NCBI GenBank assembly: GCA_032718475.1
Contig: JAUCBJ010008077.1
Span: forward strand, 62,001-126,000
Origin: Nemertoderma westbladi
Lineage: Eukaryota > Animalia > Xenacoelomorpha
Direction of reading: 5' to 3'
Length of the DNA stretch: 64,000 nt
The notes under the pieces: generated by a model
What the model was told of the DNA's origin: nothing
Seen by the model: only the letters and a program-made list of their open reading frames with translations
The model's database searches: none
Shown here: positions 34,450 through 64,000 of the stretch, piece by piece
Position numbering within the stretch: position 1 is the stretch's first letter
Layout: each line of letters opens with the position of its first letter
Program-made: the position numbers and the translations under genes

Positions 34450-34499
34450 ACATTTGAAACACCATGAATTTAACTATCCGTTTTATCATCGCGTGTCTT

Positions 34500-36052
34500 T
34501 GCGTCGTTCCTTCCGGCATAGGCATCTTCCTATCACTCCTCTGTCGGCTGAAGACATGTAACACGCCATCTGGTGCTCTAATCTGTATAGTCTTTTAAGT
34601 GAGGCTTTGCTGATGGCTTCCTCCTTCATTATCGAAAAACATATAACCATTCTCTTTTAGAGATCGGCTAGTCACGTCCCAATCGTCGAGTAAATCGTCG
34701 GTAGGGTTCCAAATTCTCCCGATCGACTTTTCATCATCGAAACTAATAGGTTTACCGGTCCAATTGGTCGCGATATCGGTGTCGGTCTCAAACGTCCCAA
34801 CTCCGATCCATAATCGAATCGTTTTCGTCAGATATCCTCGCAAGATACAAGGTGCGATATCCGTCCCTGCGCGATCCACTTCCTTAAAGTCCGTGATATG
34901 TGGAGGCACGTTGCGTACGATTTTTTGAACTATTACTTTACGCAACTCGGTTGATTCTAACACATCACCGAAGGTGACCGATGGGAGGAAATCCAGGTTC
35001 GAGATGATCTCCGGGTGTTCAACTATAGGGATCTCGTAAGTTGTCTCCTTCCGGGTCGGTATACTAATAGGAAAACTAGTTGGTCTCGCAACCGGTACTA
35101 TCGCTCCAGTAGAATGGGGCTGAGGTTCTCGCGTCATCTCGACATGAGGTATCTGTAGTCTCTGCGACAAACGCTGAGCAAAGGTGATACTATCGAAGAG
35201 CTCGGGTGTCATCTCCTTGGGTTCGGTTTGATCGTGGGATATCCAATAGAATGGTAGGCTCGCGAGCCTTCCGCCGAACTCCTCGATCTCGCCTTTCTCG
35301 TACGCCTTGTACGCCCTGTAGAGGCTCAAAGCTTCCCGTTTCTCTTGTGTCGACTTATTAGACTCGTCCACTACCATGCTGTAGACGTCTGGTTCGACTA
35401 ATTTAGGTTCGTAAATAACGATCTCACCCGCGTTCGGTCCACTCATTTTAAATGAATGATACGGATTTGTCAAAGGGTATCCGCCTTCTTGGTAACGTAG
35501 ACTTTGGTTGTGTGAACATCGCGCTAATATCGGCTCGGGGTTCTCCGAGTTCAACCGCATAGGAATCGCGTTGTTTGCTTGCTCTTGCTCGCGCATACAC
35601 GCTCCACATTTATAAAACAGTTTGTATACGGAAAACGCGTCCTTGGTCTCTGGATCCGCTCCTCGAGCGCGTCTATAAAGATGCATTCCTTAAAATTCGT
35701 CTCTAGCTGCAGGTAAGGGTTCGTTTACCGTCAAATATTGCAGCGTATGATACAATCGGCGTATTTCGGTGTCTGGATCCTCGCAAATGTCGCTAGCGTC
35801 GCATAACGCATCGTAGGGATATAACGCATTGTATTCCGCGCGTAATTCCTCCGTTCTTTTATTGTATGCGTCCAACCGCTGTCGCGTAACATTCGGGTCC
35901 GCCTTGGATTTTGCGAGCTTGGCTGTACTCCTAGCCATACTCTCCACTCCAAACACACTAAAGTTTTTAGCTCCATAACGATTGAATGGCGCCTGGTGCT
36001 CTTGTTCTTGCGTAAACCCTTGACGTAACTCTTTATACATCTTCTCCGCCAT
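34500..36052 (-). pseudogene. Accessory ORF of element A ending in the start of a DEDDy-like exonuclease domain
   Basis: ORFs 35690-36052 and 34595-35686 share a frame (TAA between). Continues GYMFFDNEGG...*KTIQIRAPDGVLHVF, homologous to element C GYMILDDEGT...LLHLAAPNGDIFLF. Confidence 0.7.
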
Positions 36053-44200: not shown

Positions 44201-45684
44201 TTTATCGGAGTCGTGGGTTTGAGCACAGGAATAACTTGGGGAAAACGTTTACAGTAATCCTCGACGAACTCCTCTCCTCGATCTATCGCTCCCACACTTC
44301 CTTCCTCGATCCGCTTCTGTATTCCGCGATATCGAGCTTCCATACGATCCAGGGCAGACAAGTCGTGTCCAGTTCGCGATCTTATAGATCTATCTCTCGC
44401 GTCGAGTTCGAGGTCCGCTTGCGCGTTCGCTGTCTCGCGCGATCTACGATTCAATTCGAACTGTAGTTGCATCTCCCTTTCGCGTCGATCCGCTACTTGT
44501 TGTTGTGCCGCTAACTCCGCTTCCTGTATAGCTAATCGTGCGTTTATTTGTCGTGCCTCCAACTTAGCACGAGCGTCGGACGCTGCCTTCTTCCGTGCTA
44601 ACTCAGCTGCGTTTACCGCCGCAACTCGTACTAGCTCGTCGGCTGCCGCCGCCGCGGCTGCTTCTTGCGCCAAGTTTTCCTCCAATCTGCGCATTTCCGA
44701 AGCTTCGAATTCGGCTTGCGCCTTGAGTTGCGCAATTCTTGCCTCGTCCTCTCTATGTTGTTTCTCTCCTTCGATGGCGATCTGTGCCATCTGGTGTTGC
44801 GCTTCTTCCTCGGTGACTTGTTGTCGGCGTGCAACCTCCTGTTGTTGTCGAGTAATTCCAGACGCTGTTCTACTAACGTCGCCAACGTTGCCAACGTCGC
44901 TCCGTACGCTAACGAACGATCTATCCAGTGGTGGATGTTGGTAGGCTCGCGAGCCTTCCGTAGTGAGAATTTCCGTCGTCCCTCGCGGTTCGACTTCCGG
45001 TTCGTCGATCGGTACGCCGCATCTACGAAGAAAATTGGTCAGCGTTTCCAACCTTCCGTCCAGGCAGTAGAGTTCTTCTTCCTCTTCGGGTTGTAACAAC
45101 GCGTCCGAAACTGACTCACCTAACAGTTGGTCAAACTGCTCCTGTTGAGCCAATCTTATTACTGACTTAAACTGGATAATGCTTTCTTTCGCACTTACTA
45201 ATTTATCTACTATCTTTACCTGAGTAAAGTTGTCGCCACGCAACTCTGCAAGTTCGTGTAAACCTTTAAGTTTATCTACGGAGGCATGTACCCTACTTTC
45301 TATCCTTACCTGTAAGGTGTAGAACTCGTATCTCGACATCGGGGCGGTTAACTCGCGTAAAACGCGAAAACCTTCTCCGAGGTTCCGAGTAATCTGGGCC
45401 ATGTGTCCTCCTATACTCCTAATAACGTTCTCCTGGCTTCCAGTCGAACTTACCATGTCCGGTTCCCGCGATCTAGTCTGCGGGACGGTAAGGAAATCTT
45501 CGATTCTGCCGTCGCCACGCGTTGCGGCTTCCGGTATTTCCGTTCGGGGTACCGGCGACGCAAGCGGTGTGACATCGGTGGAATCTCGGGTTCTCCTTCT
45601 CGGTTCGTCTACTGTCGATCTGTCCGGGTCGCACGAGTCATAGTCGGTAGGTGGGTATCTCGTCGAATGGGGTGTGTCACTCAT
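38218..45684 (-). CDS. pol: BEL/Pao Gag-Pro-RT-RNase H polyprotein, 2488 aa
   Basis: PPKFSG gag; CSYC/CWRC/CSLC knuckles; AILDSAS protease; YYLPHH and DFYVDD RT; HSFSDAS, YWTD, NPADIASRG RNase H. Confidence 0.96.
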   Translation of the reverse strand: MSDTPHSTRYPPTDYDSCDPDRSTVDEPRRRTRDSTDVTPLASPVPRTEIPEAATRGDGRIEDFLTVPQTRSREPDMVSSTGSQENVIRSIGGHMAQITRNLGEGFRVLRELTAPMSRYEFYTLQVRIESRVHASVDKLKGLHELAELRGDNFTQVKIVDKLVSAKESIIQFKSVIRLAQQEQFDQLLGESVSDALLQPEEEEELYCLDGRLETLTNFLRRCGVPIDEPEVEPRGTTEILTTEGSRAYQHPPLDRSFVSVRSDVGNVGDVSRTASGITRQQQEVARRQQVTEEEAQHQMAQIAIEGEKQHREDEARIAQLKAQAEFEASEMRRLEENLAQEAAAAAAADELVRVAAVNAAELARKKAASDARAKLEARQINARLAIQEAELAAQQQVADRREREMQLQFELNRRSRETANAQADLELDARDRSIRSRTGHDLSALDRMEARYRGIQKRIEEGSVGAIDRGEEFVEDYCKRFPQVIPVLKPTTPIKPVFVTKPKEITPMRSTQGNRFVVTEIPQPRATSSPILAGNITSPPTVSRSLLVGREEPAFMTIKQVSKPLQVKPVTCCANPVIYRPTTKPDYFTRPLTQCSTQPTTSWKACEPTELRRRMDVGSTHGIGQRIARPTTSWKACEPTEQRRAVDSRPQRTKPRIIRRTRTRQPPYPDDSDSSSDSESTEREIFRTGAAEDYKREERSTNPYIDNPPRETPQQKPTLQPAEAISTNRLAEIMQPVADRLAQIEERLEAQPSDRSRTSVELEQPRQHRPPRREQETRWTPTHREEDPVNNSYRRTTRGRERLDDATEQGRGQLDLVSEIAKFAARHGLPAQQPPKFSGNAKHWRTLVDYVESQIAKCAFTSTEKFNYLLQVLSGEPKRLVETFIGVPDAFELAYDRLYSIYGGNVAMAKSINEDLCRGGNISRPIDLLRLADEIKNAIGTLRSIGQLEYANAPTVLIRIIGRLHHRLRREWRRIEYQREEAGGLLKLTDVYQLISREAVIETRSNYTDHHIAAEGIAVSAPNRTKPFPTNAKAVTYATPTETSKVLTPIGTTQPRQQLPADFVGCSYCERNGRNHSEHKLCGCRAFKELGIEERRLQIRSLDSCWRCMKPGHVRKDCPSDDTCSLCGRNHDALLHTTSHTPTRRFRREHPDKAARCDALYKERAPREIRTFYTDCMDQSGSSDEDEEEDDTFYVHAGEEQPSITLLTQNQLKGFSVIPIKITGTRGSKRIYAILDSASSHSYVDEQVADVVTDMSQGKTAQYTVSSMHGKRAIPMTRVKLTLDTLLSKEEHSKEERSLLPVRNLTFAATKDFSNLLGPVPEQSPEDRKYFRHLGIPECSVNYRSIAMLIGTDQFNLHQVWETRPSVITAGNPYACRTPIGWYTRAPIRSLEVSDQEDDVLSTCTLLTNTIDNSPSHSRGPIVRTALRQTCVANADATDTDVTDLDTTIRTSDLQLLAVDQVVLTTEDQRFVAVDDSMNEDFGRLASLPKNPKVIDPTHQASTPVVDLGRLASLPTDQEVVKPPHDDSTPTSDTGRLASLPDTLTLATAADEDVDEDHGAVQAALERLLTERTIQWLEQDSAEPGSYETAMSEQEKRSKNIMRDTIRQTANGHYEVGMLWRNGQPKLVNNYPLALRRLRSIRQRLLRDETAHMQYNAQLQTYLQKGYAIRMLNPEVTTDQTYYLPHHFVRHPDKPGKVRVVNDCAALYQGMSMNSELMDGPNMNNYLMGVLMRFRQRKVAFTCDVEAMFHQVKALERDRDSLRFLWYPDGNLQLLPETYQMQVRVFGARDSPNCTMYALKQTALDRRDQFDPEVVRTVERDFYVDDGLKSCDTFERATTVAHQLQDCLAEGGFHLTKFASNEPELVNSFDPMDRSGGDLDLDLEPLPTTKVLGLSWDPNTDIFRVCVRSNDQTRPLTKRTCLSTMSRLYDPLCFISPVILHARIILRSIWQAGLEWDDPIPEKLAERWRDWEAQLMFLRDYTIPRVYFPLQTTFPADLELHSFSDASKDGLGVTLYLRRQVTSDSYDVSLVTSRARTMPLKYMTVPRGELQAGTISTDIVSLVQRELEANLKVTYWTDATLVLWYINNETFEFKTFVSNRRAEILDRSLKQDWRHCPGKLNPADIASRGMQPLDFCKLDNKSFWFRGPDFLQQPSDEWPPLFDATTNTIPEGAEIKLDKVVKSKAKANAKVKRKKGRTKSDDLDARPDITPDVSPDIRPDACTNPSPDVPREISPDVSPDCSPDYSPDYSPEETPDCSPDCSPGCLMELSTECLPDVSPDFPPDISTDCPPDFRPDFEPDFLTEVTLDRLWDRRQDISLDVPRYVSPDVSPDCSPDASPDCLLNTPLEDPLERTFRDSPNLTSLDDRGVATGITLRSKKVLDLPTGKRVTKVRKLTGSQEHTDTVELKPLLPVDTLGADGKGKTVEIDVLGDSDKPTGRPVGLPSPDKYPHYDYTLPDDVTNTYVDRIVNLTRSWTDACRKLAWLKRL
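38660..39070 (-). repeat. 12-bp coding minisatellite (PDxS tetrapeptides) in the RNase H-integrase linker
   Basis: PDVSPDCSPDYSPDYSPEETPDCSPDCS... Confidence 0.85.
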
Positions 45685-48215
45685 GTCTTATTATATACGT
45701 CAAGTACGGGTAATAAAATGTCAAAGTGTCTGAATGTTGAAGTGTCAAACTTACCTTGGTATATATAGTATCTATATACCCTAACCGGTACAAATAAATC
45801 AACAAGTCAGAATGTCGAAATGTCAAAATGTCGAAATGTACAAATGTCAAACTTACCTTGATATATATATATATCATATATATACCCTAACCGGTACAAA
45901 TAAAACTAACAAGGTATATAATAAAATAAGTAGTAATCTAGCCTACCGGCTAAATTTGTACGAATAAGTGAGATAACGATATACGTTAACAAAATATAGA
46001 TCAACAAGTACAAACAATAGGCTAAACAGCAACGTCTAACGGGAAAATAAGTACCAACAACACTACTAATAGACAGTGAAACCCACAAATTTTGAGTACT
46101 ACTGTGCTTTCTTAAGTTTGAATGACGCGAGTCGTAAAACTTACGTTCCTTTGATCTTCCAGTCGTACAAATTCCCAAATACAAACCGGACGTGGGTCTT
46201 TCCGTTTTTCGGCGGCGCGGATGAATTTATTGTCTCCCAAACTTTGCGAAAAGCGGTCTAATCCTCGAAGCGGTCCAGAAATGAGTCCTTGAGTCCTGAA
46301 AAGGTCGAAGGTGAGAGTTTTACTTCTACGCTTACGAAAAATCTTCCTAGGTACCGATACAAATTGGTCTTTAAACCTTATGTACCTTTTCAAGTACCGA
46401 AAAGTAACACCGCACACACACGGCATAAAACAAAGTGCTACAAACTAACTGTTAGCTAGTCAAATATTAAATACGAAAGTACTAGCTACCCTAAAAGCCT
46501 ACTGAAGCAGGGGACGTTCTAAATTACTAAATTTACTAACCTTAAATTTTAAATATCTCCTACTTACAATAGCTAACAGATCTAAACTATACTATACACT
46601 AATTTATATAGTACTTCCTACTGTAAGGGTCCAGTAGTATACCGCTTACCAGATCCTAGTAACGATGTATCTTACTATGAGACTCTAGTAATGTATACGG
46701 GCTCGTACAGTATCTGACAACAAATCCCAGTCCAGGATATCTAAACAAACAGATACAATACACAAACGACTACTGGCGAGGAACAGAGCCTAGTATCTAT
46801 TCTATGTACGTGAGCGGGTCTAATGCCTACGTACTAGACAAAAGGATACCTGTCCTCTAACCGGTGAGGCAGATGTACAGTTACAGTAACAGACCAAACT
46901 CACGGGAAAACAATCCCCGCGCAGCGAATCCTAACTATCACTGACAGTCCTAAATACAGTAACTTGCCGCGGTGTGATTTATATGGTTTATATACGAACT
47001 AGGTGGTTAACAGACCTAGTGTAACAATGCTGATTACCCCTGTCTAAATCAGCCTAAAAGTCGTGCCTAAATGTAACGATAACTGATCCCCCTGTACGAA
47101 ATCAGTCTAAAGGGTCAAGCCTAAATGTAACAATACTGCTGGACAGAAAACAACAGTTTAATAATGAAGGTGAAATACTCCTTATTGCCGCAACTAAATC
47201 AGATCCTAATTTTACAAATACAGATAATTTCTGCCTAAAATAATGTATAGTGCGCTATAGCTAGTAGAACTCTAAGGGCAATATATTTTAGGGCGTGTGT
47301 GTGTGGGTGTGTTACAAATAAAACAATTTCGTGTATTTCTTTTTACTAGGTTTTAGTGATTTTCTGACCGAAATAATACCGTGCGCTAGCTACTAAAATA
47401 AACTAGTCGCGTTTTGTAGAACTTTATACTCACAAGTGACGTCAAAGCTCTCTCCTTCCTATCCACAACCCAATGGGCAACCACAGTGTTAGTAACTACA
47501 CCCGTGATCGGCACTAATACCAGATTCTGGTTGTAAGATAAGGAATAGGGGTTAATTGCTACCGTACGTTAGCTGATCTGGTATACTAATTTAATTCTAG
47601 AACTTTGTTGCTGCGGTAGTTAGCAGCAATACCTATCAGTACGTGGCAAGGCGCGGTAGGATATTAATAAACCTCCCTAGGCCAAGCAGTGTGCCGGTAG
47701 CAGAAATGCTCCTTTCCTGATCAAATAGCTAACTCCAGACAGGGGGGGGGGGGGGTACTAATGTACGTTCTACAAAGCGAACCGGTACCAAACAGTCAGT
47801 GCTACGAATCACTAAATTATGGAACATATGCTGTCCGTACCTAATATGTACTCGCGTACTGACGAATGGCAATAGTTCGCACCTGTAGGAAGTACAGGTT
47901 AACCCAGGGGTTCGTAGGACTGACAAAGGGGGGGGTGTTTCTGTCTGAATATAATTATTTGATCCTAAATTTGCGGCGTCCAGTACGGCATCACGCTTAC
48001 CCTGATCTATAGGTCTTACGGCGGGCAAGGGCGTCGAACAAAGTCTTACCTTCTCACAAAGCGGGCGCTGCATGGCAAGTGGAGCATTTCGAAGGGCAAA
48101 GGGGGTGCGCGGTCGATCCAATGTGGGCGCTAGCGTGTTGTGGACATCTTTTCCCTGCGTTGCTTACGGCCTAACGGTCTAGGCTGCCTTCTCCCTGATG
48201 TTTGGCTGTCCCAAA

Positions 48216-48234: not shown

Positions 48235-49015
48235 TGTTCAGGAATTTGCAGTATATTTACAGTTTTACAAAGGATTTATCAAATAAAGTTTCAACAAGAA
48301 ACCGAAATAAACTAATAACAATTTAGAATAACGTTATAAGGAGAATTTACAAGCGAGATAACCGAAGGCAAACCGGCCTTTTTATACTAAATATCGCACA
48401 TGGAAACTAAACAGAATTTTCCACAGCTTCACATTTGAGCAATAAAGTGCTTCGTGCCCTATGATTGGCCCAGCTCATCGTTCAACGCAGTCCGGCCCTT
48501 ACACTAATCTGGGACATGGAATCCTAACAGAATTTTCCACTGCCTCACATTTGAGCAATAAGATAATTTATGCCCTATGATTGGCCTGGCTCATCATTCG
48601 CTACGTTGTACGCTTCTCATTGGCCTACCAATTAGCACCAAACGAAAATAAATGGCCCCAAAATACAAATTTCCCGACTGGGATTCGAACTCGTAACCTA
48701 TGTAATGTAACCAACGCCTTAACCATCTGACCACTACGCCACGAGAGTACCTAAGGGTTTTATGTGTACAAATATGAATAGGCATATTACATTACTAGCT
48801 AGGGAAGTACCGGGACTTTAATCACCATCTTCGATACCCGCCTTCCGCTTACCATCAATATTCTGTTGTCAATTCCGTGTATCATTTATTCATTTATACT
48901 ATTATACCCGAAGGACTATATACAACGATCAACAAACTCTTTCACCTTTCACACACGGCGGGGACGCGTAGATTAAAAACCGGATAAACCGGGATCCTCC
49001 CTGGATCCCGTGACA
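48235..49015 (-). repeat. 5' LTR of element A
   Basis: Minus strand TGTCACGGGA...CCTGAACA; TATAAAA at ~48380; CCAAT boxes within an 85-bp segment duplicated at 48399-48483 and 48515-48599. Confidence 0.7.
48672..48740 (-). other. tRNA-derived sequence (Pol III A and B boxes) inside LTR A
   Basis: TGGTCAGATGGTTAAGGCG A box and GAGTTCGAATCCC B box; the acceptor stem does not pair, so not a functional tRNA. Confidence 0.65.
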
Positions 49016-49120
49016 GTGATTAAATCGGAGCTGCTACCCTAGTTAACTACCAGAGTGATTAAAACCAACTGCTGCCCTAAGCTAGATACCAACAACACAA
49101 ACTGACTGCCAGATATAAAG

Positions 49121-52100
49121 ATGAGTCGAACAGGAGAGACGACACCGCCGCGGACCCCGGACGGCGATCTAACGATCCGCGAGGCCGCGACTAGACGGTA
49201 TAGACCCGCGACGCCGGACCCATCAGTAACGGGCGATCCGGCAATTCAGGATGAGGGGGGCCGTCTACAACCGGAGAGCGAGTTGGGAGAAAGGAGAGAC
49301 AAGTCGGGAGAAGATAAAGACGAGTCGACGCGGAGCGGGGGTCGACGCACCGATGTCGCCGGCCAGCCACAGGCCGAGGGCGACGGACGGTCCACCGGAA
49401 CGGCGACGGTGGAGCCGACGGTACGACGCCGGACCCGGAGAGACGGAGGAGATGTCGGCGAGGAGAACGTCGGGGTCAGCGATCGACTTTGACGGGCCTA
49501 CAACGCGGCCCGGAAGATACTTAAAGAGGTCAAAGGAGGGGCGAAGATAGATGAGGTAAAGCTAAGAAAGAGAGTAGGTGAGTCGAACGAACATTTCAAC
49601 TATTTAATGCGCTTTGGGCAGAAAGAACTAGCCGAGGACAGAGCGAGGGGGGTTGCCAGCCAACTGTCTGATCTATGGAAGTGTATGGGTATGTGGGCTA
49701 GTGTAGTGTACATAGGGCCATACTCAGTCAATGCCCGGGGAGTAAAATTAGTGGGTTGGAGGAGACCGCAGGAGGGCGAATCCGAGGTTAACCCCGAGGA
49801 TTTGGTCTCGTTGGTCGGAGAAAGTTCAGGGAAAAGGGGGAAGGTCAGTAGGATGGGAAGGCGGAGGGAATCCGTCGTAACCGAAAAGTCTGCTACATCC
49901 TCCGCAAAAGGAAGACGTGTGGCGGAAATAAATCTGGCGTGCGAACTCTATCTAGCAGCACAAAGTCAGAGGGAATACGAGAGACGGTTAGAGGAAGAGA
50001 GCGCGCTGTTAGAAAAGGAGAAAGAACTAATTATAGAAAATAGAGAGAAAGCTGAGAAGGTCGCGAGAAGCTTTAGGGAGCGCGAGGCGAGAGAGCAAAG
50101 TGAGCGTAAGGAGTGTGAAGCGAGAGAGACAGAGTTAATGAAACAGAATTTGCAAGAGGATACAGAGAGAGAGAGAACGGGAAAGCGTGTGCGGGATGGT
50201 ATACAGGCCCAGATAAGCGGACTTATTGAGTATCAAACCAGAAAGAAGCGCATATTGGAACTGGCGCAGATGGGGTTGTCAGAGAGTGACGCTGGCTCGA
50301 GTGCTCTTGAGGGGCCAAGGGTCGTGGAAACATTTATTAGTAACCCACTTACAAGGACCGCACGACAGACCCGAGGACGAGTCGGGAGTCAAGATGGAAA
50401 GATACGAGTTGGGAGGAGAGAGAGACGAGTCGACATACAGCGGCGGTCGATGTGCCGATGTCGCCGGCCAGCCACAGGCTGAGGGCGACGAGCGGCCCAC
50501 CGGAACGGCGACGGTGGGGCCGCCGGTACAGCGCCGGACCTGGAGAGATAGAGGAGATGTGGGCGATGAGGACATCGGGGTAAGCGATCGACTTCGACGG
50601 GCCTACAACGCGACCTGGAAACAACTGAAGGAGGCCAAAGGAGGGGCAAAGATAGATGAGGTAAAGTTGAAGAAACGACTAAGTCGACTAAGTGAGTCGA
50701 ACAGACATTTTGATTACCTAATGCATTTTGGACAGGGAGAACTAGCCAGCGAGAGAGCGAGAGAGGTTGGCAGAGAACTGTTTGAACTATGGGAATCTAG
50801 GGGTATGCAGCCTAGTGTAGTGTACATAGGGCCATACTTAGTCGATGCCCGGGGAATAAAATTAGTGGGTTGGAGGAAACCGGAGGAGGGCGAATCCGAG
50901 GTTAACCCCGAGGATTCGGTCTCGTCGGTTGGAGGAAGCTCTAGGAGGCAGGGGAAAGTTAGTAGGACGGGAGGGCGAAGGGAGTCCGTCGTAACCGATA
51001 ACTCTGCTACATCCTCCGCAAAAGGAAGAAGGGTGCAAAATATAGATCTGGCGTGCCAACTTGATCTGGCGGCGCAAGACCAGAGAGAATTAGAGAGACA
51101 GTTGGAGGAAGAGAGTGCGTTAATAGTGAGGGAGAAAGAACTGGTAAGAGAGAACAAAGAGAGGGCCGAGAAGGCCGCGAGAAGCTTTAGGGAGTGCGAG
51201 GAAATAGGAAGGATGGAAAGGAAGGAGCAAGAAGTGCACGAGGCAGAGCGTGAGGCGGAACGTAAAGAGCGTGAAGTGAGGGCGGAGAGTGAACGTAAAG
51301 AGCATGAGGCGGAACGTAAAGAGCGTGAAGTGAAGGCGGAGAATGAACGTAAGGAGCGTGAGGCGGAACGTAAAGAGTGTGAGGTAAGGGCGGATAATGA
51401 GCGGAGAGAACGTGAGGAGAGGCGACTTAAGAGAATCGAGAGAGAGACAGAGTTGGCCGATCAAAGTTCACGGGAGGGTACAGAGAGAGAGAATGAGAGA
51501 AAGCGTGTGCATACCAAAGATGGTATGCACACGCGGATAAGGGAGCTTATACAATATCAGACGAAACAGAAGCGCCGACTGGCACTAGCACAGATGGGGC
51601 TATCAGGGAGCGAGAGTGGCTTGAGTGTTTGCGAGGGGCCAGGAATTGGGGAAACATTTATTAATACTCCACTTACAGGGACCACACGACAGACCCAAGA
51701 CTGGTGTGACCGTGCGGGCGGGGGGGGGGGGTAATAATAATATAATAATAATACAGTAGATAGCGTTAATATTAATAGTACCGTATTAGATAATCCTAAC
51801 CAAACCTTTATTCCAAGAAATATTTTACCTAGTAGTAGTAATTTAAACTTAAATGCAATTAACCCAAATAATTTAAATAATAATCCGAATTCGAATTTAC
51901 AAATTAATCCAAATAATTTAAATAATGATCCAAGCCCGAATTTGCAAAATAATTAAAATAATCCTATCTCGAACGAACAAAATAATTATGTTTCTAATTT
52001 TGGTGCACAAAATAATTCAGGTGAACTAGAGGGCCAAATTGGCGACAAATACAGTGGTCTATTAACGTGAATGTGTCGGACATACACAACCCAGCAAACG

Positions 52101-55100
52101 GGGGCCTGGTAGGCAGGAAGTGGCGGGGTTAAGCCAACCCGTCGGGGGCCTGGTAGGCCACGTAGTTGGTAGGCAGGAGGTAGCGGGGTTGAACCAACCC
52201 GAGGTGGGCCTGGTAGGCCACGCAATAGTAGAGAGAGAGGCGGGGGTGAACGGACCCAGCCGTAGTAGAGACAGTGCGTCGACTAGAGAGGGGTGTAGAG
52301 GTGAAGTGAGAGATAGTGAAGTGAAATGTGGCGAGTGGGGGGGGTGGGCTAGGGGCGCCCCACCACGACAAATTAGTGGCGAGAGAGGGGGGGGCAGAGA
52401 GTGTCCCACAGGCGTCGGCAGATAATGCGCGGGCCGAGACAGGTAAACCGCAACACCCGGCGACGGAGAGTAATAGGGGGATTGCGAGTATCCCCAGCGG
52501 CGTGCGATCGGGCAGAGAGAGGCAGGTTGACGTCGCGAGAGGGCGGACGAAGCGTCGAGCCCAGTCAGAAGAGGGAAGAAGAACAGTGGAGTTTAACCGG
52601 GAGATGGAGGAGAGATCTCACGAGCGGGAATACTGCACTGGAGAGAGAAGAAGAGAAGAAAGTAGAAGAAGTATCGCTGCGGGCGATAGGAGAGCGAGGA
52701 CGGATACCGAGCCGTCGATAGTCGAGATGAGAACGGAAAGTCGGTGGGGTCGAACTTCGGGAGATTGCCGTCGCCCCGGAGAGGCGCGACCTGACGAGGC
52801 GCACTACGCGCCGATAGAGGGGTACGCGATGTACCGACACGAGAACGAGAATAGTGGAGGGGGTCGAAGAGAAACTTTCCGGCGGGATATAACTACCGAT
52901 CGAGAATACGGTAGCCGCAGGGAGGATTACTCGAGAAGATTAAACTTCGATCCCGAGCGACACATACAGACTGTAGGACATACTGTAGGCCTTACTGCAC
53001 ATACCATAGGCCATGCTGACAGGAATAATGTAGGTGATAGGATAGCGCGGACGACGGAATTAAACCCGGAAGTCGCGGAGTACATACCGGCGGGTAGGCC
53101 AGGAGCTGGTAGGCCTATACCGGTACCAGCACAGCAATATGACTACAGCATGCAGGGACATAACATATACCCAGGGGAGGGGGGGAATTATTGCGGATAG
53201 GTGCATGGGCCCCAATATATTAACATCAACCCCAGTACCAAGCATACCGGTGGGGGGGGGGGGGACAGGGTGACATTCCCCCATCACAATATCAACAATA
53301 TACCCCGATAGGAGTAAGAACAACGAGACCCTTGGATGAAAACAGATCATGCGACACAGAAATATGGAGGGGGCCGCTACCCCCAATGATATACCCTAGC
53401 CAAAGGAAGGTAGGAAATAGGACGGACGGACCACACCCAACAGGAGAAACTATACAACATCCATCGAACCCATTGGAAGCGCAGGCGATGGGGATGGCCA
53501 CGTTGATCGATGCGTTAAAAACTAGGATCGAGTTACCACCCATGGAACCGTTTAAATTCGATGGGAGTAGGCCGGAAGAATACCTACAGTTTCGGCGCAT
53601 GTATAGTAATGAAATACTGACAAAGAACTTGACGCAGGCGGAGTGCCTAAAATATCTGCAAGTATATACAGGAGGCCCAGCATACGACATCGTGAGGCAA
53701 TACCAGGGCATAGAGGGTGGCTTCACGACGGCATGGCGGGCACTGGACAGGGAATACGGGCACCCGGCCAAGATCATCTGGCAAACCCTGAGGGGCATAA
53801 CATAGGGTGGCCTACAGGATAATCCCGTTAGCATAAAGATAATCGCTAACAAAGTCGAGAAGGCGCTAATCGTGCTAAAGACGCTAGACGCGCCATACGA
53901 ACTCAACGCGTCCAACAACATCACCACGATAGCGCAGGCGCTACCGATGTGGCTGCGCAACAAGTGGAGGAAGATCGCTTTCTCCACTCGAGATAGGAAG
54001 GGTGCAGAACCAGGTTTAGAAGAAATGTCGAGCTTCTTGAACTACGAAGCCGAATTAATAACCGACCCAGTCTATAGCGAGGGAATTCCCTGGGAAAGGG
54101 ACCAAGAACCGACTACCATAGACCGAAACCAGAACACAACACGTCAAACGCATTACCAAAGCTCAGGCAATCATTGCCATACGCAGCGACACAGGGGACT
54201 GCGAGTCCACAGGTAGCCGGGGGTAAGACCACATCATGGAGCGGACAGGGGAGGGATAACAACACAAATAAATATAACCCCAGTACGCCCAATAGGCCGA
54301 ACCCAAACAATAAGAATAGTAGGGACTTGGTACAAATGCAGCTGCGATACGCGATGCACTGTACAAGGATGGCTACGACCCAAAGAGCAAATGCCAACTA
54401 CATACAAATGCGCATCATCGAACCATGAACTGTAGCTACTGGCAAGCACTACCCAGGGAAGATCAGATAGAGTACGCGGCTAAAAACGAGATCTGCTCGC
54501 GATGTGTCATGAGTGGACATAGAGCTAGGCAATGCAAGGAGACTCCAATTAAGTTCGGTGAAGGGAAAGGCCAAACGATGGCAACGAGCACAGTAGGGGC
54601 GAAGAAGAGAGGAATGGTGCTGCTTGGGGTGGTACCAGTGCGAGTGATTGGAGAAGGCAATCGATCAGTGACCACGCTGATGCTGGTCGATAGTGGAGCT
54701 GCCTTCACATTAGTTGAAAATTAGGTGGCCGAAGAGCTAGGATTGAGAACGAGGCCAAGTAGAATGGTGGTGACAACGATATCTAGCAAAGATGAGGTCC
54801 TGGAGATGAGGACCGGACGGTGCGCAATTGCAGCAGTGGCAACGGGATGCTGTGATGCAACGGGATGCTGTGATAGAGTCAATAAATATCAATGCCAGGC
54901 GACCAACCAACATCGAGGTCGAGCAATATAAATTCCTGGACGATATCGACTTCTCAATCCCAGAGGTGGACGTCAGGAAGGTATCCATCATAGTAGGAAT
55001 GGACTGCCCGACGGCCCATGAAAGAATGCAAACGGTCTTCGGTGAAGACAAGCAGTGTGATCCGGTGGCGATATTGACGCCGTTCGGGTGGACACTGAGT

Positions 55101-56044
55101 GGCCCAATTAAGAGTAAGATACCATTTAGGATGTCGGAGACATCGGGATGCATGTTCGCGGGAACTATGCAAGAAATAGGGGATGAGAGAGCGGAGGAAC
55201 AGCTCAAAAGACTGCTCAGGCAAGATTTTGAGGGACTAAAGGAAACCGGGGTCGGAACCTCGGTAGAAGACAAACAGGCTCAGCAGAGCGTAGAGGAATC
55301 TATGAGATGCGATGAGGGGCGGTATACCATAGGAATGGTATGGAAGCTACCAAAGCTACCACTGCCCGATAATAAAGCGGTGGTACTCACGAGGCTTCGT
55401 AAGTTGAAACAGACATTAAAACGGAGCCCCGAAAAGAATGAGTACATTCATAAAACAATCAGAAAGTACGTCGAGAAGGGATCGGCCGTGGAGTTACCGG
55501 TCGACGAACCAAACACGGACAGGACATATTACCTACCACTCCACGTGGCTTTAGATCCGAAGAAAGGTAAATTGCGGATGGTAGTGGACGCATCGGCAAA
55601 GACCGCCGGGAAATGCCTAAACGACTATCTGCTAGAAGGTCCCAACATATACAACTCAGGGATAGAGGCCCTACTCAGGTTTAGGAATGGAAAACACGCC
55701 TTCACCTGTGACATATAGGCATGTTCAACCAAGTCCATGTGACGGAAGAAGATAGCGACAGTCAATGCTTCCTATGGTACGACGGCGACGTGGAACCGTC
55801 GACAATACCGATGTACAAGATGATAGTACAGAATATGGGAGCCAAGTCGTCTTCTTTCACGACGACTATGGCCGTAAGAGACACAGTAAAGGGAAAGGAA
55901 GATAAGTACAGCACTAGAGCCGTCGATGTGATTCGACGCGGCTTCTACGTAGACGACGGGATGGAGTCTGGAAATACGGTTAAGGAGCTACTGGACACGG
56001 GCGCGAGGTTCGCGACATCCAAAAGGGATCCGGCTTCAACCTAA
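49121..56044 (+). pseudogene. gag: Element C gag-protease-RT with multiple stops and frameshifts
   Basis: Coiled-coil N-terminus duplicated; PFKFDGS gag core; CSRCVMSGH knuckle; LVDSGAAF; YYLPLH; GFYVDD at ~55945. Confidence 0.9.
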
Positions 56045-56109
56045 CCAAATTCCAATCCAGTTCGAAGGAATTTATCGAGGCGATAAAAGATGAGAGACCA
56101 GGATCGACC

Positions 56110-58590
56110 ATGGATAATCCCACAACAGCCAAGGGGCAGGACATGGCGAACAAGAGAATAGAGTCTCAACAGAAGGCACTGGGAATTGTGTGGGACAGAG
56201 AGACGGACGAACTGAAGTACCAGTTGAGTCAGGAGGGCGCAGATATCCATACAAAGAGGGGCTATGTGTCGTACATATCAAGGATATATGATCCCCTAGG
56301 CCTAGCATCCCTACTACTAGTCACGGGGAAACAGATACTCAAGAAAGTGTACAAGCTAAAGGACGAGTGGGACGCAGAGGTCCCGGAAGAGATTAGAAAG
56401 CAGTGGTATAAGTGGACAGAGAGCCTGGAGCAGATGGGAACATACAGCATGTCACGAGTGTATTTCCCGGATGGGGACATGACGAATCTGGACCTACACA
56501 TGTTCTCCGATGCGTCGTTAGAGGCATACGGAGCGGCACTCTATTTAGTACAACGAGAGGGGGCTCGCAAACCCAGACTCGCCTTCAGCAAAGCGAAGTC
56601 AACGCCACCAGATTCAGCATCAGTTCCCAAACTAGAAATGACAGCTGCGAGACTAGGAGTTAGGGCTACAGCCTACCTAATGGATGCTATTCCCAACATA
56701 GTGGAGACGCACTACTGGACGGATTCCATGGTAGTGCTTGGTTGGCTACATAACGAAAGGACAAGATACCCTATATTCGTCGCGAATAGGGTGGATGAAA
56801 TAAGGGCGATCACAGAACTGGGAAGGTGGCACTATTGCCCAACGGACGAGAACCCTGCGGACTTGTTATCAAGGGGCATGGTACGCCACACTTTCTTGAA
56901 GAAGGAAGTATTGTGGCAACACGGGCCACAGTTTCTGATCGATAGGGAGGCCTGGCCACCGATGAGAAAGGTGGACCCGGGCTCAGGAGAAGTTGTGTTA
57001 GAAGGAGAAGAGGGAGATTCAGAGGGAGAAGAGATATACTCCCAGATGGTGAGGGAGATTAGGGACGTGCAACCAAAACCAGGAGAACTGTGCGATAACC
57101 CGATGGATAAACTCCTTAGCTACAGTTCTAGTTGGTACAAGACCAAGAAATTAGTGGCGTACTGGAGAGCCTTCGGTAATTTCCTCAGGGGAGTTGGCAA
57201 AGACGTGAAGGTTAGAATGGCAATAGATCCGGAAGGAGCGGCTAAAGCAGTCATCCGCTACGAGCAAAAGAAGAACTACGGCGACGAGGTGGAGCGCGTC
57301 GATAAACAACAGCATCTCCGACGGGACAGCGAGCTGATCACGCTGTCGCCACAACTTAATGATGACGGGATCCTAGTAATGAATTCTAGGGTGGGATACA
57401 ACAACAGTATCGTTGTTCCACCGAAGCCCATCATCATCCCCACAGGATCGCCGATAGTCCACCAGATTATTTGGGACTCCCACAAGTCGATATTGCACGA
57501 GGGCACCAACCGAACCCTCACGGAGAAAAGGAGGACCTTTTGGGTCAAACAGTTGAGGAAGAAGGTAAAGGCGGTAGTGGGGCAGTGCCAGACCTGCCGA
57601 CGAGCGAAGAAGGAGCGAGCCATACAGGAGATGGCACCACTACCAGCGAGTAGGGTAAGACAGCACGACCCGCCATTTACACATTGCGGTGTGGACATAT
57701 TCGGGCCGATAAAGATCAAAGTGATGCGGCACACGGAGAAACGCTACGGTATTATCTTCGTATGTAATAACACGCGGGCGGTAGGGATAGAACTCGCCCA
57801 GGACGCAACCGCATCGGCATTCATTAATGCCTTAGAGAGGTTTAGAGACCGCAAAGGTGGGACAATCGCAGTAATATACTCCGACAACGGGACCAACTTT
57901 GTGGGGGCGGAGAACGAAATGGCAGAGGCCTTGGATATCTTGGAAGGAGAGGAAGTCAGGGCAGCCATGAGGCGACGACAAATAAAATGGGAGAGGAGGA
58001 CGCCGTATGCACCGCATACCCTAGGATGCGTCGAGAGACTCGTGGGTAGTTCAAAGCGTCTGATGACGAAGTTGATGAACACCCATATGGTTACGGAGGA
58101 CGTGCTAAGGACAGTACTTGCGAAGTGTGAGGGTATCATTAATAGCAGACCGCTATATCCAGAGAATGATGACCCTGAATCACTAGACGTGCTGACGCCA
58201 AGCCATTTCCTAATGGAAAGGCCAGTGACCATCGACATGCGGGGTGTAGACCCAGATGACATACACTCACGCCAGAGTTGGAAAGTCGCTAAGACGATAA
58301 GCGCAGAATATTGGAGAAGATGGGTTGAGGAATACCTACCCATGCTTCACAGAAGAAGTAAGTGGAGGAAGACGAACAGAGAGCTGAAAGTGGGTGATCT
58401 CGTGATCGTCACGGATGATACCATCATCAACAACCAGTGGCGGTTGGCGAGAGTTGTAGGCACTTACTCCGACGAGGACGGAAGAGTCCGATCGGTAGAA
58501 GTGCGGATAGGTGGCAAGATAGGTGCAAAAGACAGGAAAACCTACAGAAGGGCTGTAGGGAAGTGTTGTCTTCTAGAGGGAGCACCTTAG
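56110..58590 (+). CDS. pol: Element C RT thumb, RNase H and integrase (open 826 aa)
   Basis: IYDPLG, HMFSDAS, YWTDS, NPADLLSRG, GVDIFGP, SDNGTNFVGA, ERLVG. Confidence 0.93.
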   Translation: MDNPTTAKGQDMANKRIESQQKALGIVWDRETDELKYQLSQEGADIHTKRGYVSYISRIYDPLGLASLLLVTGKQILKKVYKLKDEWDAEVPEEIRKQWYKWTESLEQMGTYSMSRVYFPDGDMTNLDLHMFSDASLEAYGAALYLVQREGARKPRLAFSKAKSTPPDSASVPKLEMTAARLGVRATAYLMDAIPNIVETHYWTDSMVVLGWLHNERTRYPIFVANRVDEIRAITELGRWHYCPTDENPADLLSRGMVRHTFLKKEVLWQHGPQFLIDREAWPPMRKVDPGSGEVVLEGEEGDSEGEEIYSQMVREIRDVQPKPGELCDNPMDKLLSYSSSWYKTKKLVAYWRAFGNFLRGVGKDVKVRMAIDPEGAAKAVIRYEQKKNYGDEVERVDKQQHLRRDSELITLSPQLNDDGILVMNSRVGYNNSIVVPPKPIIIPTGSPIVHQIIWDSHKSILHEGTNRTLTEKRRTFWVKQLRKKVKAVVGQCQTCRRAKKERAIQEMAPLPASRVRQHDPPFTHCGVDIFGPIKIKVMRHTEKRYGIIFVCNNTRAVGIELAQDATASAFINALERFRDRKGGTIAVIYSDNGTNFVGAENEMAEALDILEGEEVRAAMRRRQIKWERRTPYAPHTLGCVERLVGSSKRLMTKLMNTHMVTEDVLRTVLAKCEGIINSRPLYPENDDPESLDVLTPSHFLMERPVTIDMRGVDPDDIHSRQSWKVAKTISAEYWRRWVEEYLPMLHRRSKWRKTNRELKVGDLVIVTDDTIINNQWRLARVVGTYSDEDGRVRSVEVRIGGKIGAKDRKTYRRAVGKCCLLEGAP

Positions 58591-58759
58591 TGTAGAGTAT
58601 GAGAGGAGTTTAGTCGCCCAAATTTTGGACTGAGGGGGGTGGGATTGAGGGCGAGACGCCCTTCCCACACAAAATAAAATAAAAAAAAAAAATAATAACA
58701 AATATAAATAATAGGTACGCAGTAAGTAGGCAGATAGAAGTTAGTTAGTTGAGTTAGAT

Positions 58760-59300
58760 AGAGGTTAGTAAGAGGGTACGTAGTATCGTCAGTTAGTTAA
58801 GTGGAGTTAGAGGTTAGTAAGAGGGTACGTAGTACCATTAGTTAGAGAGTTAGTAAGAGTTAGAGGGTACGTAGTACCGTTAGTTAGAGAGTTAGTAAGA
58901 GTTAGAGGGTACGTAGTACCATTAGTTAGAGAGTTAGAGGGTACGTAGTACCGTTAGTTAGAGAGTTAGTAAGAGTTAGAGGGTACGTAGTACCGTTAGT
59001 TAGAGAGTTAGTAAGAGTTAGAGGGTACGTAGTACCGTTAGTTAGAGAGTTAGTAAGAGTTAGAGGGTACGTAGTACCGTTAGTTAGAGAGAGTAAGAGT
59101 TAGAGGGTACGTAGTACCGTTAGTTAGAGAGTTAGTACGAGTTAGAGGGTACGTAGTACCGTTAGTTAGAGAGTTAGTAAGAGTTAGAGGGTACGTAGTA
59201 CCGTTAGTTAGAGAGAGTAAGAGTTAGAGGGTATGTAGTACCGTTAGTTAGTTAGAGAGAGTTAGAAGTTAGTAAGAAAGTACGTAGTACTAGTTAGTAA
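58760..59300 (+). repeat. ~42-bp tandem array, ~13 units
   Basis: Unit GAGGGTACGTAGTACCGTTAGTTAGAGAGTTAGTAAGAGTTA. Confidence 0.95.
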
Positions 59301-59760
59301 GAGATAGAGGTAGAAGGGTATATATAGTATAGATATTAGTCAGTAGTTAGTAGCGAGAGGGGGGCATATGAGTACAGCTGGATAAATCGTGTAGGCCGCG
59401 CGACATATACTGTTGAACTGCACAAGCCCACAGAGTAGGCCAGAATGTGGATTAGGAAATAGAACAATCCATAGGCAATAGTAAGTAGTAGGACAGTAGA
59501 ATTAAAAATTAAGTTAAAATAAAATAAGAATAGGGCTGAAAATTAGCAAATGATGGTAACAGTAGGAAAGAAATTCTGGAACATAATAAAAGTAACTGAC
59601 AAAATTCGCAATTTAGGTACAATTTGGTAGCTACAGAAATAAAGCAGTGTAAAATAGGCAATAACTCAGAAATTCAGAGAGAGATAGGCCATCAAACTGA
59701 AATAAACCATCTAAACCTGTCACTCATCCTATAGCGCCTTGGTAAGGCACCACCCAAAGG

Positions 59761-61959
59761 GTGAGCGATCGGGCAGAGTTCGAGATGGCAAGCAAACTTG
59801 TGCGAAAGAGAAAGGCGGAGCAAGGAGGAAAGGAGATACTGGTGGATTTCACCAAGAGGCATCCGGAAGAGAGGACGAGGGGATACTATGACCAGTTAGA
59901 AAAGGGTCACGCAGCACGAGCGCTACAGGACCACTTCAGGGAGATGCATGAACAGCGACTGGTAGGGACCTACGGGACGCCGTCGCTGGACAACGTGATC
60001 TTCGAGCATTTCCACTACGTGGTGAAAGGAGACGAGGCGAAGTTCGGGATTCCGAAGTACACGAGAGAGTCACCGAGGAAAGATTGGAAGAGGTTCATAG
60101 AGTCCGTCAACAGGGGAGGATACATGATCCTAGACGACGAAGGGACTGTGGAAGATGAGGAGGGTTCAAGGAGAGGATCGGTGGGATCGGCTAGAACCAT
60201 ACTCCTACATTTGGCCGCGCCAAATGGGGACATTTTCCTGTTTGACCTGGGAACGTATGGGAAGAAGGATGGGCCGAAGTTGGACCGGCTGCCGAGGGCG
60301 GTGCAGGTCCTAATGAGGGAGAAGTCGACGACGAAAGTGGGATCGGCCATTCGCAACGACGCGGAGAGAATCATCGGTCCGGACGCCACCAACCTCCTGG
60401 ATATGCAGAAGGTCTTCATGGCTATGACAGCACCAGACGGGTTGGGACTAGTCGAGAACACAGGCCAATGCGGAGTGGTGGCAATGGGTCAGCTATTGGG
60501 GCTTGTATGTCACAAACCGATGGACTGGGGGAAGTTCAGGGAAGAATACGGAGCAGAACTAGCGAACTCGCTGAAGTGGGGAGCGAGACCGGGAAAGTAA
60601 GAGGTGTATCAATTCCGAAGAGGAGCAATAAAGGTATATCAGAAGCGATATATCCTGCAGGAAGATTGGATAATGATAAGTTTGCTTAATTTATTCATAA
60701 CCGTGGTTATCGAGAGGGAACCAGCGGCATTTCTGTTATCGGGATCACCCCTAAGCTACAGAAGAGCCTTTAAGACGGCTTTCGATGGTCTGGTAGACCA
60801 CCCGTAGCTGAAGGGCGAGTCGGTGTACTACAACAGCCGACATCTGATAGACGGGGGGATAGATACGCCGTATCAGAGATGGGAGGAGCTAGAGACGGAT
60901 AGACGAGAGGCGAAGCGACTGGAAGAAGTTGCTAGACGGGAGAGGAGAGAAGCAGAGGAAAGGGAAGAGGAAGCTAGGACGCAGAGCTACTGCTTCGAGG
61001 AACAGGCGGGCCTAGACGAACTTCGTTGGACTTCGTCAGAGAGTTCGGGGGAGTCTCTAGGGCGAGAACTGGGATGGACGGTGGGATCACCGAGACAGTC
61101 GACGTTGGGGTTGCAAGCGATGCCCATACCAGCGGGCGCCGAGGGCGACCAACCGCTGAGGAAGTTAGGGGAGCTAGAGGGATGGAGAGCTACGGGCGAG
61201 AGCCAAGGCGGGAAGGCACATAGTGGATCCACCGGGATACCGGGGTTGGAGCCGCTGCCAGAGGAGGACGAAGACGACGACGAGTTCGGAGAGATGCCAC
61301 CCATCGGGAGGATCGGCCACTCGGACACGGGCTGGGTTGGCGGGAGGGTGGTGACGGCCAGTGGGGCGAGGGCCTTCTGGGATAGACCCAGCAAGCGGGC
61401 CTGGGTGCACGAGGAGCCGGCGATGGATTTCGCGGGGAGCACTATCAGGTTGGGCAAGCAACCGGGGACGGCACCACGAGTAGTATTCGGGGAGACGATG
61501 CCCGAGAGGGGCGAGGAAATCGACGTAGACAGGGACACTAACGTCCGGAAGTTCGCTTACCAGCGACTCCACAGACCGCGGAGATCGCTTGGGACGAGGG
61601 ACGAGGTGGGGCGGGAGACATTGGTACTCGGTTGTGATTACTGTGGGAGACAGACCCACCAGGAAAGGAGCTGTTTGTACCGGTTCCAGAAAGGGACCTT
61701 TTGTCTCTATTGCCGCGAGTCGAGCCACAGGATGGGGGCGTGTCCAAGGTTGCATAACTGATGTTCGAAATGTAACTTTCGGGGACATTACGGACGCCAG
61801 TGCGACTGGATGGACGACGAAGAGAAGTTTAGGGTCTTCGAGGAATGGGCCGATGTCGGGGCGATGACTCGGCAACGTATGAAGGCCCAGGAGTTCCGGT
61901 GGGGCTTTTTTAACATCAATCAGGAGGCTCACATGGAGATTATCAAACGGAGGCTTCCG
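59761..61959 (+). pseudogene. Accessory ORF of element C: DEDDy/WRN-like 3'-5' exonuclease plus triple CCHC knuckles
   Basis: ORFs starting at 59761, 60604, 60823 and 61810 are all one frame with three stops. ILDDEG (ExoI), LLHLA..IFLFDL, KVGSAIRND (ExoII), LLDMQ, GVVAMGQLLG..K; CDYCGRQTH, CLYCRESSHRMGACP, CSKCNFRGHYGRQC. Confidence 0.8.
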
Positions 61960-64000
61960 TTTTTTTTTTTTTTTTTTTTTTTTTACATTAATATTTCTTT
62001 AATTACGGGCAAACAGGGCAAAGCCCTATATCCTGCCCTCACGGGTTTGTTACATGATACACCACCAACAAATTCATGATAAACATACTATTATTAAATA
62101 TAGATATATTATTTCTGTACAGACAGATATTTGCAGCGCATACCCAACACGAGCGCCGGTGAAAACCTCACAGTTACAATCCTAGTCATAGCTATGGCTA
62201 GTCTAGGCTATTGTATATTCCACAATTACCCTACATACATAGTTAACAAGAAGTGTAGAAGAGCAAAGTTAAATTAGATATATTACATACAACAAATAAT
62301 TGTGCGTTGTTATACTGTACGTACATATAAATAGTTCCAACACGAAAGTGAATGCTCTCAATTTATTCACAGTATATTTAGGTCCAAAAATACATTTGAT
62401 TAGAAGTGCTAATTTATTTATTAATTTGGAATTTTTTGTAGTTCTCTACACACTAGAGCCTTTATAGTTTATATTTCAACTGAGCTAAATCGTTTAGAGT
62501 CCAATATATATTTTGATACCGCATTAATAAGTTTGTTCAGATCCTTACATTTCTGGCCGTATAGGATTGATTTTAATGTGATTGGTAAGTTTAGTGAGTT
62601 TAATTTGTCAACTAGGTTATGGCGGTGACTGGTGAATTCGGTGCATGAAAAGAAAAAGTGGTCTGGTGTTTCTCTGGTATCTAATCGGCAGAACGCACAC
62701 GTAGGGTTATCACTCAGGTGTCTATTAACCATATGGTCTGCAAGACAACTACGTTCCAGGCGTAGCTGGGCCAGAATAATCTGCACCGTTCGCGTGCCGG
62801 CATTAAAATAAGGATTGTCCTTTATAGTATTGGACAAACTGGATTTAAGTAAATGTGGCAACTTTGCCTGCATAGTAGATGAAAGTGAGTTCCAGGCACT
62901 GGTTGTTGAAGGGAAAAACGAGTTAAGATACAGTGATTTATGTGCCGAGAATGAGGTAAAATTTGTTTCGTTTCGAAGTTGGTATCTGTGTCCGTCACCT
63001 ACCTGGGGTGGCAGGAGGTCAGTCAGGTATGCTGGGGCATGGCCGTGCACTATTTTACTCAGTGTTACCAAACAGTTGTTATTCCGGCGAGTAGATAAAG
63101 GTTGTATATTACACTCGTCGTACAACTTGACGTGTGATGTTCCCCGTGGTGCCCCAGTTGCCACACGTAAAACTTGCAACTCGAAGTCATCGAGTGCATC
63201 TGACTGTTCTTTTGTAATGTTACACCAGACAACATTACTATATTCTATGACCGGTCTAATATATGTTTTGTATATGGTCAGTATGGTCTGCCGTGGTAGC
63301 TTGTACTTAAGGCATTTTAAGGTTGCTAACTGTGGTGCTACCTTATCTAAGATATGTGAAACATGATCGGCCCAGGTAAGTGTAGAATTAAGTACTTCCC
63401 CTAGATGCTTGTGTGTATCTACATTATCGAGCTGTTCGCCCATGAGATATAGGCTATGCTGTAGATGTGATTTGTTGGCTGGGATGGTCATAGTATGAGT
63501 TTTATCTGGATTAAATTTAACAAACCAATTGCAGGCCCACCTGTGGAGACTATTAAGTTCTGAATTCATAAAATGAGCAGAAACTGCAGGATGGGCAATT
63601 ATACTGTAGATAGTAGTGTCATCTGCAAAAAGTGATACATTAGCTAACAGGACAGAGACTAGATCGTTGATATAAACTAGAAACAGCAAAGGTCCGAGGA
63701 TACTTCCTTGGGGGACCCCCGCTTCGATCAGCCTTAGCACTGATTCTTTTCCATCAAGTACAACCCTAAGAAATCTATTGTTCAAATAATCATAAAACCA
63801 GTTAAGGAGGTTCCCACGAATCCCCGCTCGATGTAGTTTGTATACCAGACCCCGGTGCCAGACTCGGTCGAAGGCTTTCGAAATATCACAGAAAATTATA
63901 CGAACGCCATCGCCCTCGTCCCAGGTCTGGCACCAGGAATGGTATAAATGGAGCAACTGAAAGACACAGCTGTCGCCCCTATTTCGATAAGCAACATAAA
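61960..64000 (-). mobile_element. CR1-type LINE (RT ORF 62469-63956), runs off the window
   Basis: DISKAFDRVWH, GVPQGSILGP, LFADDT, C-terminal CAFC...ETPDHFFFSC; poly(A) tail seen as a T-run at 61960-61984. Confidence 0.95.

Follow-up and report, generated by a model that had tools for sequence, protein, structure and literature searches.

ORF3, the third gene of a BEL/Pao retrotransposon in Nemertoderma westbladi that we term element C, is a broken version of a gene that is conserved in BEL/Pao and combines a DEDDy 3'-5' exonuclease fold with three zinc knuckles. The usual description of BEL/Pao elements comprises gag and pol, and sometimes env. The window, that is the whole stretch of 64,000 nt analysed here, is repeat-rich eukaryotic DNA, in which element C is encoded on the plus strand, in the order broken gag, pol, spacer and ORF3. 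The gag region (49106-54724) is internally duplicated and carries DUF1759 at 53224-53805 (E 7e-8), and the frameshifted pol (54810-58590) contains reverse transcriptase (RT), RNase H, which is matched by Peptidase_A17 (E 1e-38), integrase (Integrase_H2C2, E 1e-10, and rve) and DUF5641 (E 3e-24), which is the Pfam set and the domain order of BEL/Pao. A tandem duplication of the N-terminal gag region, with copies that are 76-83% identical, occupies 49295-51699. Between pol and ORF3 lies a non-coding spacer of about 1.2 kb (58591-59784) with a 42-bp tandem array at 58762-59251. At its other end, the ORF3 frame runs into a poly-T tract (61960-61984), which is the tail of a LINE (RVT_1) on the minus strand (61960-63998), and because this LINE has inserted there, the 3' LTR and the true end of ORF3 are missing. 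No LTR pair for element C was found within the window, and no 5' LTR or primer binding site (PBS) could be fixed there for element C or for a second BEL/Pao element, A. Near element C there were no tRNA or Rfam matches; a highly repeated stretch on the minus strand (48670-48740) looks tRNA-like by eye and gave nothing with ARAGORN or Rfam. Elsewhere, the window contains a Gypsy-type element flanked by 98% identical repeats (5652-10526) and a proline-rich repeat frame with a C-terminal domain that could not be assigned (2691-3659), the latter within an inverted repeat pair (621-4756).

The ORF3 frame extends over 59746-61959 on the plus strand and comprises 725 codons, including three stops, when counted from the first ATG (59785-61959). 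An earlier note on this DNA had described a frame of about 730 codons with three stops that starts at 59761; the frame and the stops stand, but 59761 is an upstream GTG and the first ATG lies at 59785. The first stop (60598-60600) falls within the exonuclease domain and is absent from most other copies in four sequencing runs of the same organism, the second is located at 60805-60807, and the third (61759-61761) separates knuckles 2 and 3. In these four runs, which represent at most three samples, dozens of distinct contigs span pol and ORF3. A subset of contigs from the same organism (three runs, two samples) skips the exonuclease and keeps the knuckles, with 1137 bases lost and a joint at 59802-60940. 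The ORF3 family is therefore multi-copy in the organism of the window, and the window copy is a decayed one.

The exonuclease domain (60004-60714, plus strand) was delimited by profile matches, a predicted model and fold searches. All of the DnaQ-family motifs that had been pointed out before are present in the ORF3 translation, namely D-x-E (DDE, 60133-60141), LLHLA..LFDL, KVGSAIRND, LLDM and YILQED. With the ExoI D-x-E and the ExoII aspartate (60358-60360, within KVGSAIRND), the window copy has the acids expected of a DEDDy enzyme, whereas its ExoIII motif (60649-60663) reads Y-x3-E and not the Y-x3-D of DEDDy proteins. Among 70 relatives, ExoI has its D in 43 and its E in 48, the ExoII position is D in 40 and E in seven, and ExoIII has Y in 44, with D in 40 and E in 14 at its last acid. 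Four loci (L010, L044, L077 and L079) have His in place of the ExoIII Tyr and keep all four acids.

The domain is hard to see with standard tools. Pfam alone missed it in the window protein, as did single-sequence PDB searches, and across the family Pfam detected it in only one of 49 domains and one of 43 proteins. Word-seeded protein searches with the window protein or its alignment gave no match, and with one intact domain only five close relatives, none of them named. A full HMMER search of 1.84 billion representative proteins with the window protein returned 65 matches, many of 500-800 residues. After fragments and unrelated repeats had been set aside, 31 of them were aligned together with the window protein. 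Every one of these relatives has the knuckle block and a tail that ends in WGF, and most have the N-terminal domain as well. Exonuclease profiles built without the window sequence matched the window copy at 60085-60699 (E 2e-28) and 60076-60720 (E 3.5e-30), and by this leave-one-out scoring the match exceeds chance. The family profile in turn matches EXD2 (2.1e-14; 1.7e-12 with a second profile), the Trypanosoma brucei RNase D TbRND, Egalitarian and WRN. A model predicted from 49 sequences (pLDDT 84.9, pTM 0.85) superimposes on the exonuclease domain of Nibbler with a Z of 13.8 and an rmsd of 3.3-3.4 over 198-200 residues, followed by WRN (Z 13.1), RNase D (12.7) and TbRND (12.2), and has Exd1 and Egalitarian among its listed structural matches. 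The predicted model thus has the DnaQ-like fold that the earlier note had anticipated. Foldseek agrees on the exonuclease fold, and the viral matches are 3'-5' exonucleases of giant viruses and phages.

Downstream of the exonuclease, a charged helix leads into a low-complexity linker (60868-61630) that is unconserved among relatives, is predicted to be disordered (pLDDT below 50 for most of residues 419-610) and measures 100-400 residues in the family. The three CCHC knuckles that had been noted after the exonuclease (61633-61803) are exact CX2CX4HX4C motifs at 61633-61674, 61702-61743 and 61762-61803, and ten Cys/His columns of this block are invariant in 32 sequences. They are followed by a conserved helical tail (61804-61914; pLDDT 82-93) with WGF at its end, in which G706 is invariant and G691 and T694 are conserved in at least 90% of sequences. 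The nearest ESM Atlas cluster has the same plan of an exonuclease and a CCHC array (score 0.86), which we treat as a lead only, and a search of viral contigs with the knuckle pattern gave no matches. One protein, P0002, carries the module of knuckles and tail in two copies.

A scan with a degenerate pattern of the knuckle core yielded at least 120 metagenome loci, 80 of which were taken with their flanks; most derive from eight similarly named assemblies, perhaps from one campaign, and they overlap in part with the protein matches (P0044 is L046). The counts that follow are among the matches listed. The knuckle profile matches 78 of the 80 flanked loci, and in 40 of these 78 a BEL/Pao pol lies upstream on the same strand. 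The exonuclease sits between pol and knuckles in 38 of the 40 pol-linked loci, the two in which none is detectable being L047 and L059; protein P0050 likewise has knuckles only. In 43 of the 78 loci, exonuclease and knuckles share one open frame. Since the scan relied on the knuckle motif, versions with the exonuclease only could not surface. Among the 38 loci without a pol match, the first domain is preceded by less than 1.6 kb of DNA in 32. More is available in six, namely L012, L052, the solo pair L008/L032, L022, in which Pfam finds a BEL integrase tail, and L005, the frame of which begins near the end of the contig. The Gypsy and LINE pol sequences of the window had no upstream match at any of the 78 loci. 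In L023, ORF3 lies inside two LTRs of 797 bp that are 95% identical, have TG..CA ends and are accompanied by a PBS-like site, and the assemblies of L060, L062 and L065 are circular, with 10.0-10.3 kb. The proposal of a lineage-wide accessory gene in the env position of BEL/Pao, located between the LTRs, is borne out by these loci.

Several loci have features of their own. L022 (5187-10931) is a non-autonomous derivative in which LTR-like repeats surround a gag-like piece, the DUF5641 tail of pol and ORF3, the same plan as in element B of the window. A near-identical, pol-less frame of 507 codons with a dead exonuclease and knuckles recurs in three assemblies (L032, 1908-3428; L008; L072), within AT-rich DNA that contains CCGTT repeats; it may have been captured by another element or the host. 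ORF3 reaches 1328-1592 codons in L005, L015, L043 and L051, with long N-terminal extensions that have no Pfam match, and in L051 a second open frame, of 1589 codons, follows downstream. L046, L057, L062, L065 and L069 share a PBS-like start, TGGCGCCC, near the contig start, which we take to resemble a tRNA-Lys primer site.

Two further BEL/Pao elements on the minus strand of the window had been proposed to carry homologous parts of this gene. In element B, which consists of a gag-protease remnant (32296-34473) with pol mostly deleted and a third gene in two frames (29227-30676), the homology of the knuckle block (30162-29935) holds with a BLASTP E of 5e-7 and a knuckle profile iE of 5.6e-10; the homologous tail after the knuckles is also shared, and no exonuclease match was found in this gene. 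Inspection of the window showed a candidate polypurine tract and the TG start of a 3' LTR of element B at 29147-29156, with no second copy in the window. Element A has a gag-pol, assigned by Pfam, at 36787-45687, in which 12-bp tandem repeats (38640-39082) enlarge pol between RNase H and integrase and leave the frame intact. Its third frame (34490-36052) begins with a long N-terminal part and enters the middle of the element B gag at 34473-34490, where a deletion joins the two elements. The exonuclease start that had been described in element A (34735-34550), with DNE at 34633-34625 about 480 codons into the frame, comprises an ExoI-like motif and two strands. It gives a pairwise E of 0.004 and an hhalign E of 0.0016 (probability 16%), but family profiles built without window sequence score it at -0.5 and -2.8 bits, while the best shuffles reach 3.5 bits, so that homology is suggestive only for element A.

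The pol domains of the window are 23-38% identical to those of the loci, and the window exonuclease is 10-25% identical to theirs. As these identities are so low, the association of pol and exonuclease is old. For 32 elements in which integrase, exonuclease and knuckles each reach at least 70% profile cover, tree distances correlate between integrase and exonuclease (Mantel rho 0.91) and between integrase and knuckles (0.91). Eight of the nine exonuclease splits with a support of at least 95 are common to the integrase tree and none is in conflict. The comparison of exonuclease and RT trees that the earlier note had suggested, made here with integrase, thus gives agreement, which shows linkage and no supported gene swap; co-adaptation is not implied by the agreement itself.

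The exonuclease is under purifying selection. In 11 pairs with an integrase identity above 72%, its dN/dS is 0.04-0.24 in nine and 0.53 in one, and it is saturated in one. The pN/pS of the exonuclease ranges from 0.06 to 0.67, with a bootstrap interval below 1 in all of ten pairs, which were chosen and are not all independent, and the knuckle interval is below 1 in the same ten. A ratio near 1, named beforehand as evidence against a functional gene, was thus not found. Five of these ten pairs belong to a clade without the catalytic acids. In 66 non-redundant domains, all four acids are present in 35, three in three and two or fewer in 26, and two domains are truncated. Half of the tree set (16 of 32 elements) is without two to four of the four acids, and these 16 form one clade by integrase (support 99); in the exonuclease tree 15 of them cluster (support 88) and L015 falls apart. 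The dead pairs are constrained like live ones (pN/pS 0.06 for L021-L033 and 0.15 for L028-L046). One sub-branch has kept the exonuclease domain under purifying selection after losing its catalytic acids. Readings that rest on catalysis alone are weakened, since half of the tree-set elements have lost the acids and yet keep the domain. In all nine elements compared (L021, L026, L028, L033, L037, L039, L046, L065 and L066), third-position GC is 0.80-0.90 in the exonuclease and 0.63-0.73 in integrase. ORF3 also has a lower dS than pol; codon selection might differ between the two genes, or ORF3 might be subject to an additional constraint.

We tentatively propose, with a confidence that stays somewhat below even, that the ORF3 protein is an RNA-binding accessory factor that serves the RNA of the element itself, and that 3'-end trimming is a predicted ancestral activity that was lost in one sub-branch. 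Since this sub-branch keeps the gene selected without catalytic residues, ORF3 is likely to act mainly by gripping RNA. RNA is the presumed ligand because in TbRND the knuckles confer RNA binding on the same kind of exonuclease; according to the accessible text of PMC7797062, they are required for RNA binding and increase cleavage. By analogy with TbRND, the ORF3 knuckles would grip single-stranded RNA and offer its 3' end to the exonuclease pocket. Where catalysis is lost, the fold could still serve as an RNA-binding surface, as in Egalitarian, in which mutants of the catalytic residues retain RNA binding and function, and in Exd1, which acts via an inactive domain (10.1101/2025.08.03.668247, as far as its available text goes). 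RNA binding would then be the constant function and trimming the optional one. The partner would be the element's own RNA or particle, with a role in protection, 3'-end handling or localisation, and not a general host target; we infer this because the exonuclease and pol trees agree. The same available text lists I-factor RNA among the cargoes of Egalitarian (10.1101/2025.08.03.668247).

Several observations weigh against an own-RNA factor. A shared fold, here that of a predicted model, shows no function, and the top fold matches include DNA exonucleases (WRN and the apicoplast polymerase). Simple linkage would equally produce congruent trees, and labels are shared among related elements. Knuckles occur without the exonuclease in L047, L059, P0050 and element B, and the exonuclease is deleted in some copies of the same organism. 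In addition, the linker of 100-400 residues is unlike the short linker of TbRND. Finally, Nibbler, the closest structure, trims small RNAs, and a role in counter-silencing would fit this as well.

In such a role, the protein would trim or sequester the 3' ends of piRNAs or siRNAs, or slicer products, like a captured Nibbler, Mut-7 or EXD protein, and in the dead clade it would be a decoy. We consider this rather unlikely, though it draws on several parallels: the exonuclease domain of Nibbler is the best structural match and Exd1 and Egalitarian are listed too, Nibbler trims the 3' ends of miRNAs and affects piRNA length (PMC4406673, accessible text), and TbRND, likewise built of these two parts, trims small guide RNAs (PMC7797062, in the portion available). 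The arenavirus ExoN provides a precedent for a viral exonuclease directed against host defence (PMC7968707, likewise from its accessible part). Because Z values within 1 are ties, however, Nibbler is not singled out and cannot be set above WRN or diDNases, and the strong purifying selection and the absence of a supported gene swap are unlike the pattern expected of an arms race, which is an expectation and not a test. The more specific idea that an ancient BEL/Pao lineage encodes a Nibbler-like, knuckle-armed small-RNA trimmer that blunts piRNA/siRNA silencing, with one sub-lineage as a dead decoy, is in our view unlikely, at about one chance in four.

Processing of cDNA ends, or proofreading during reverse transcription of a long genome, as the earlier note had also suggested, appears improbable. 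The fold matches include WRN and polymerase proofreading domains, all four acids are present in 35 of the 66 non-redundant relatives, and elements A and C each measure at least 13 kb. On the other side, ORF3 is a separate frame without fusion to RT, and the complete dead-clade units L060, L062 and L065 (10.0-10.3 kb) are not shorter than L013, which has all four acids (about 9.8 kb). As catalytically dead elements match the length of the live type, proofreading for unusually long genomes is unlikely, and the nidoviruses that carry ExoN have genomes of at least 20 kb according to the available text of PMC7968707, about twice the size of the dead-clade elements. For an env-like entry or fusion protein, position is the one point in favour; the fold is that of a nuclease and not of a fusogen, no transmembrane stretch is seen (the top 19-residue hydropathy is 1.57 in the window protein, and it exceeds 1.8 in four of 43 intact ORF3s and 1.9 in one only), so that fold and hydropathy exclude such a protein and this very improbable reading is largely refuted. 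A scan for branch point, pyrimidine tract and AG upstream of the exonuclease, as for env-like splicing, found them in four of 32 spacers, compared with seven in antisense and 6.1 expected from shuffles, a result that lends such splicing no support. Just as improbable is a frame that arose by chance or stems from captured host DNA and evolves neutrally, which the broken window copy and the recurring solo copy of L008/L032/L072 might suggest and which is refuted by the selection data, unless the compared pairs are assembly chimeras, as well as opposed by the common open frame of 43 of the 78 loci (among the matches listed) and by the congruent trees.

The closest precedent is found in bdelloid rotifers, in which Rodriguez, Kenefick and Arkhipova described a DEDDy ORF3 in the LTR retrotransposons Juno and Vesta and in Athena/Terminons (PMC5408684), a finding repeated in the accessible text of three reviews (PMC6431247, PMC6338049 and PMC5718144). 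The rotifer precedent that the earlier note had named for Gypsy-type and Penelope-like elements is thereby confirmed, as far as the available text of the primary paper goes. Similar to ORF3, the exonuclease in Juno, Vesta and Athena is RNase D-like, of the DEDDy type, and encoded by a separate third ORF after pol that replaces env. Compared by their description in PMC5408684, in the part accessible, the rotifer ORFs belong to Gypsy-type and Penelope-like elements and not to BEL/Pao, and are recent gains common to element classes, in contrast to the long co-inheritance with pol seen here. They have a DEED motif, whereas the ExoII position is D in the window copy and is more often D than E among its relatives, and the available text reports no knuckle array for them, in contrast to the three knuckles, the WGF tail and the catalytically dead clade of the BEL/Pao family.

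In accordance with its profile matches, both parts of ORF3 resemble TbRND (PDB 7c42/7c45), in which a DEDDy exonuclease precedes a C-terminal CCHC array, a combination termed very unusual in the accessible text of the TbRND paper (PMC7797062). TbRND differs in being a cellular, mitochondrial protein with four knuckles, a short linker and no WGF tail seen, while ORF3 has three knuckles and a long linker predicted to be disordered, and is borne by a retrotransposon. Nibbler/Mut-7, EXD2, which is the best sequence-profile match, the WRN exonuclease, Exd1 and Egalitarian have the same fold, but are host genes with other partner domains and an identity of 10-19%. Other BEL/Pao elements with an additional gene after pol are roo and the mosquito elements with a chuvirus-like glycoprotein; their products are membrane fusogens, unlike the soluble nuclease-fold protein described here (PMC13524379, accessible text). 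In the literature searched, no exonuclease third gene was found for BEL/Pao, and the available texts of PMC8195603, PMC6681497, PMC8220671 and PMC13524379 do not mention such a gene; subscription journals, supplements or Repbase may hold an annotation.

Taken together, a whole deep branch of BEL/Pao has a third gene with a soluble product, which Pfam almost always misses. What was described in rotifers is thereby seen in a second LTR superfamily, and is complemented by long co-inheritance, purifying selection and the natural occurrence of an active and a dead type; with this pair, purified proteins offer a direct test of the role of retrotransposon exonucleases. Should the protein target small RNA, it would amount to an antagonist of piRNA defence that is encoded by a transposon, and if the protein indeed counters silencing, it would represent a transposon enzyme directed at the 3' ends of host silencing RNAs.
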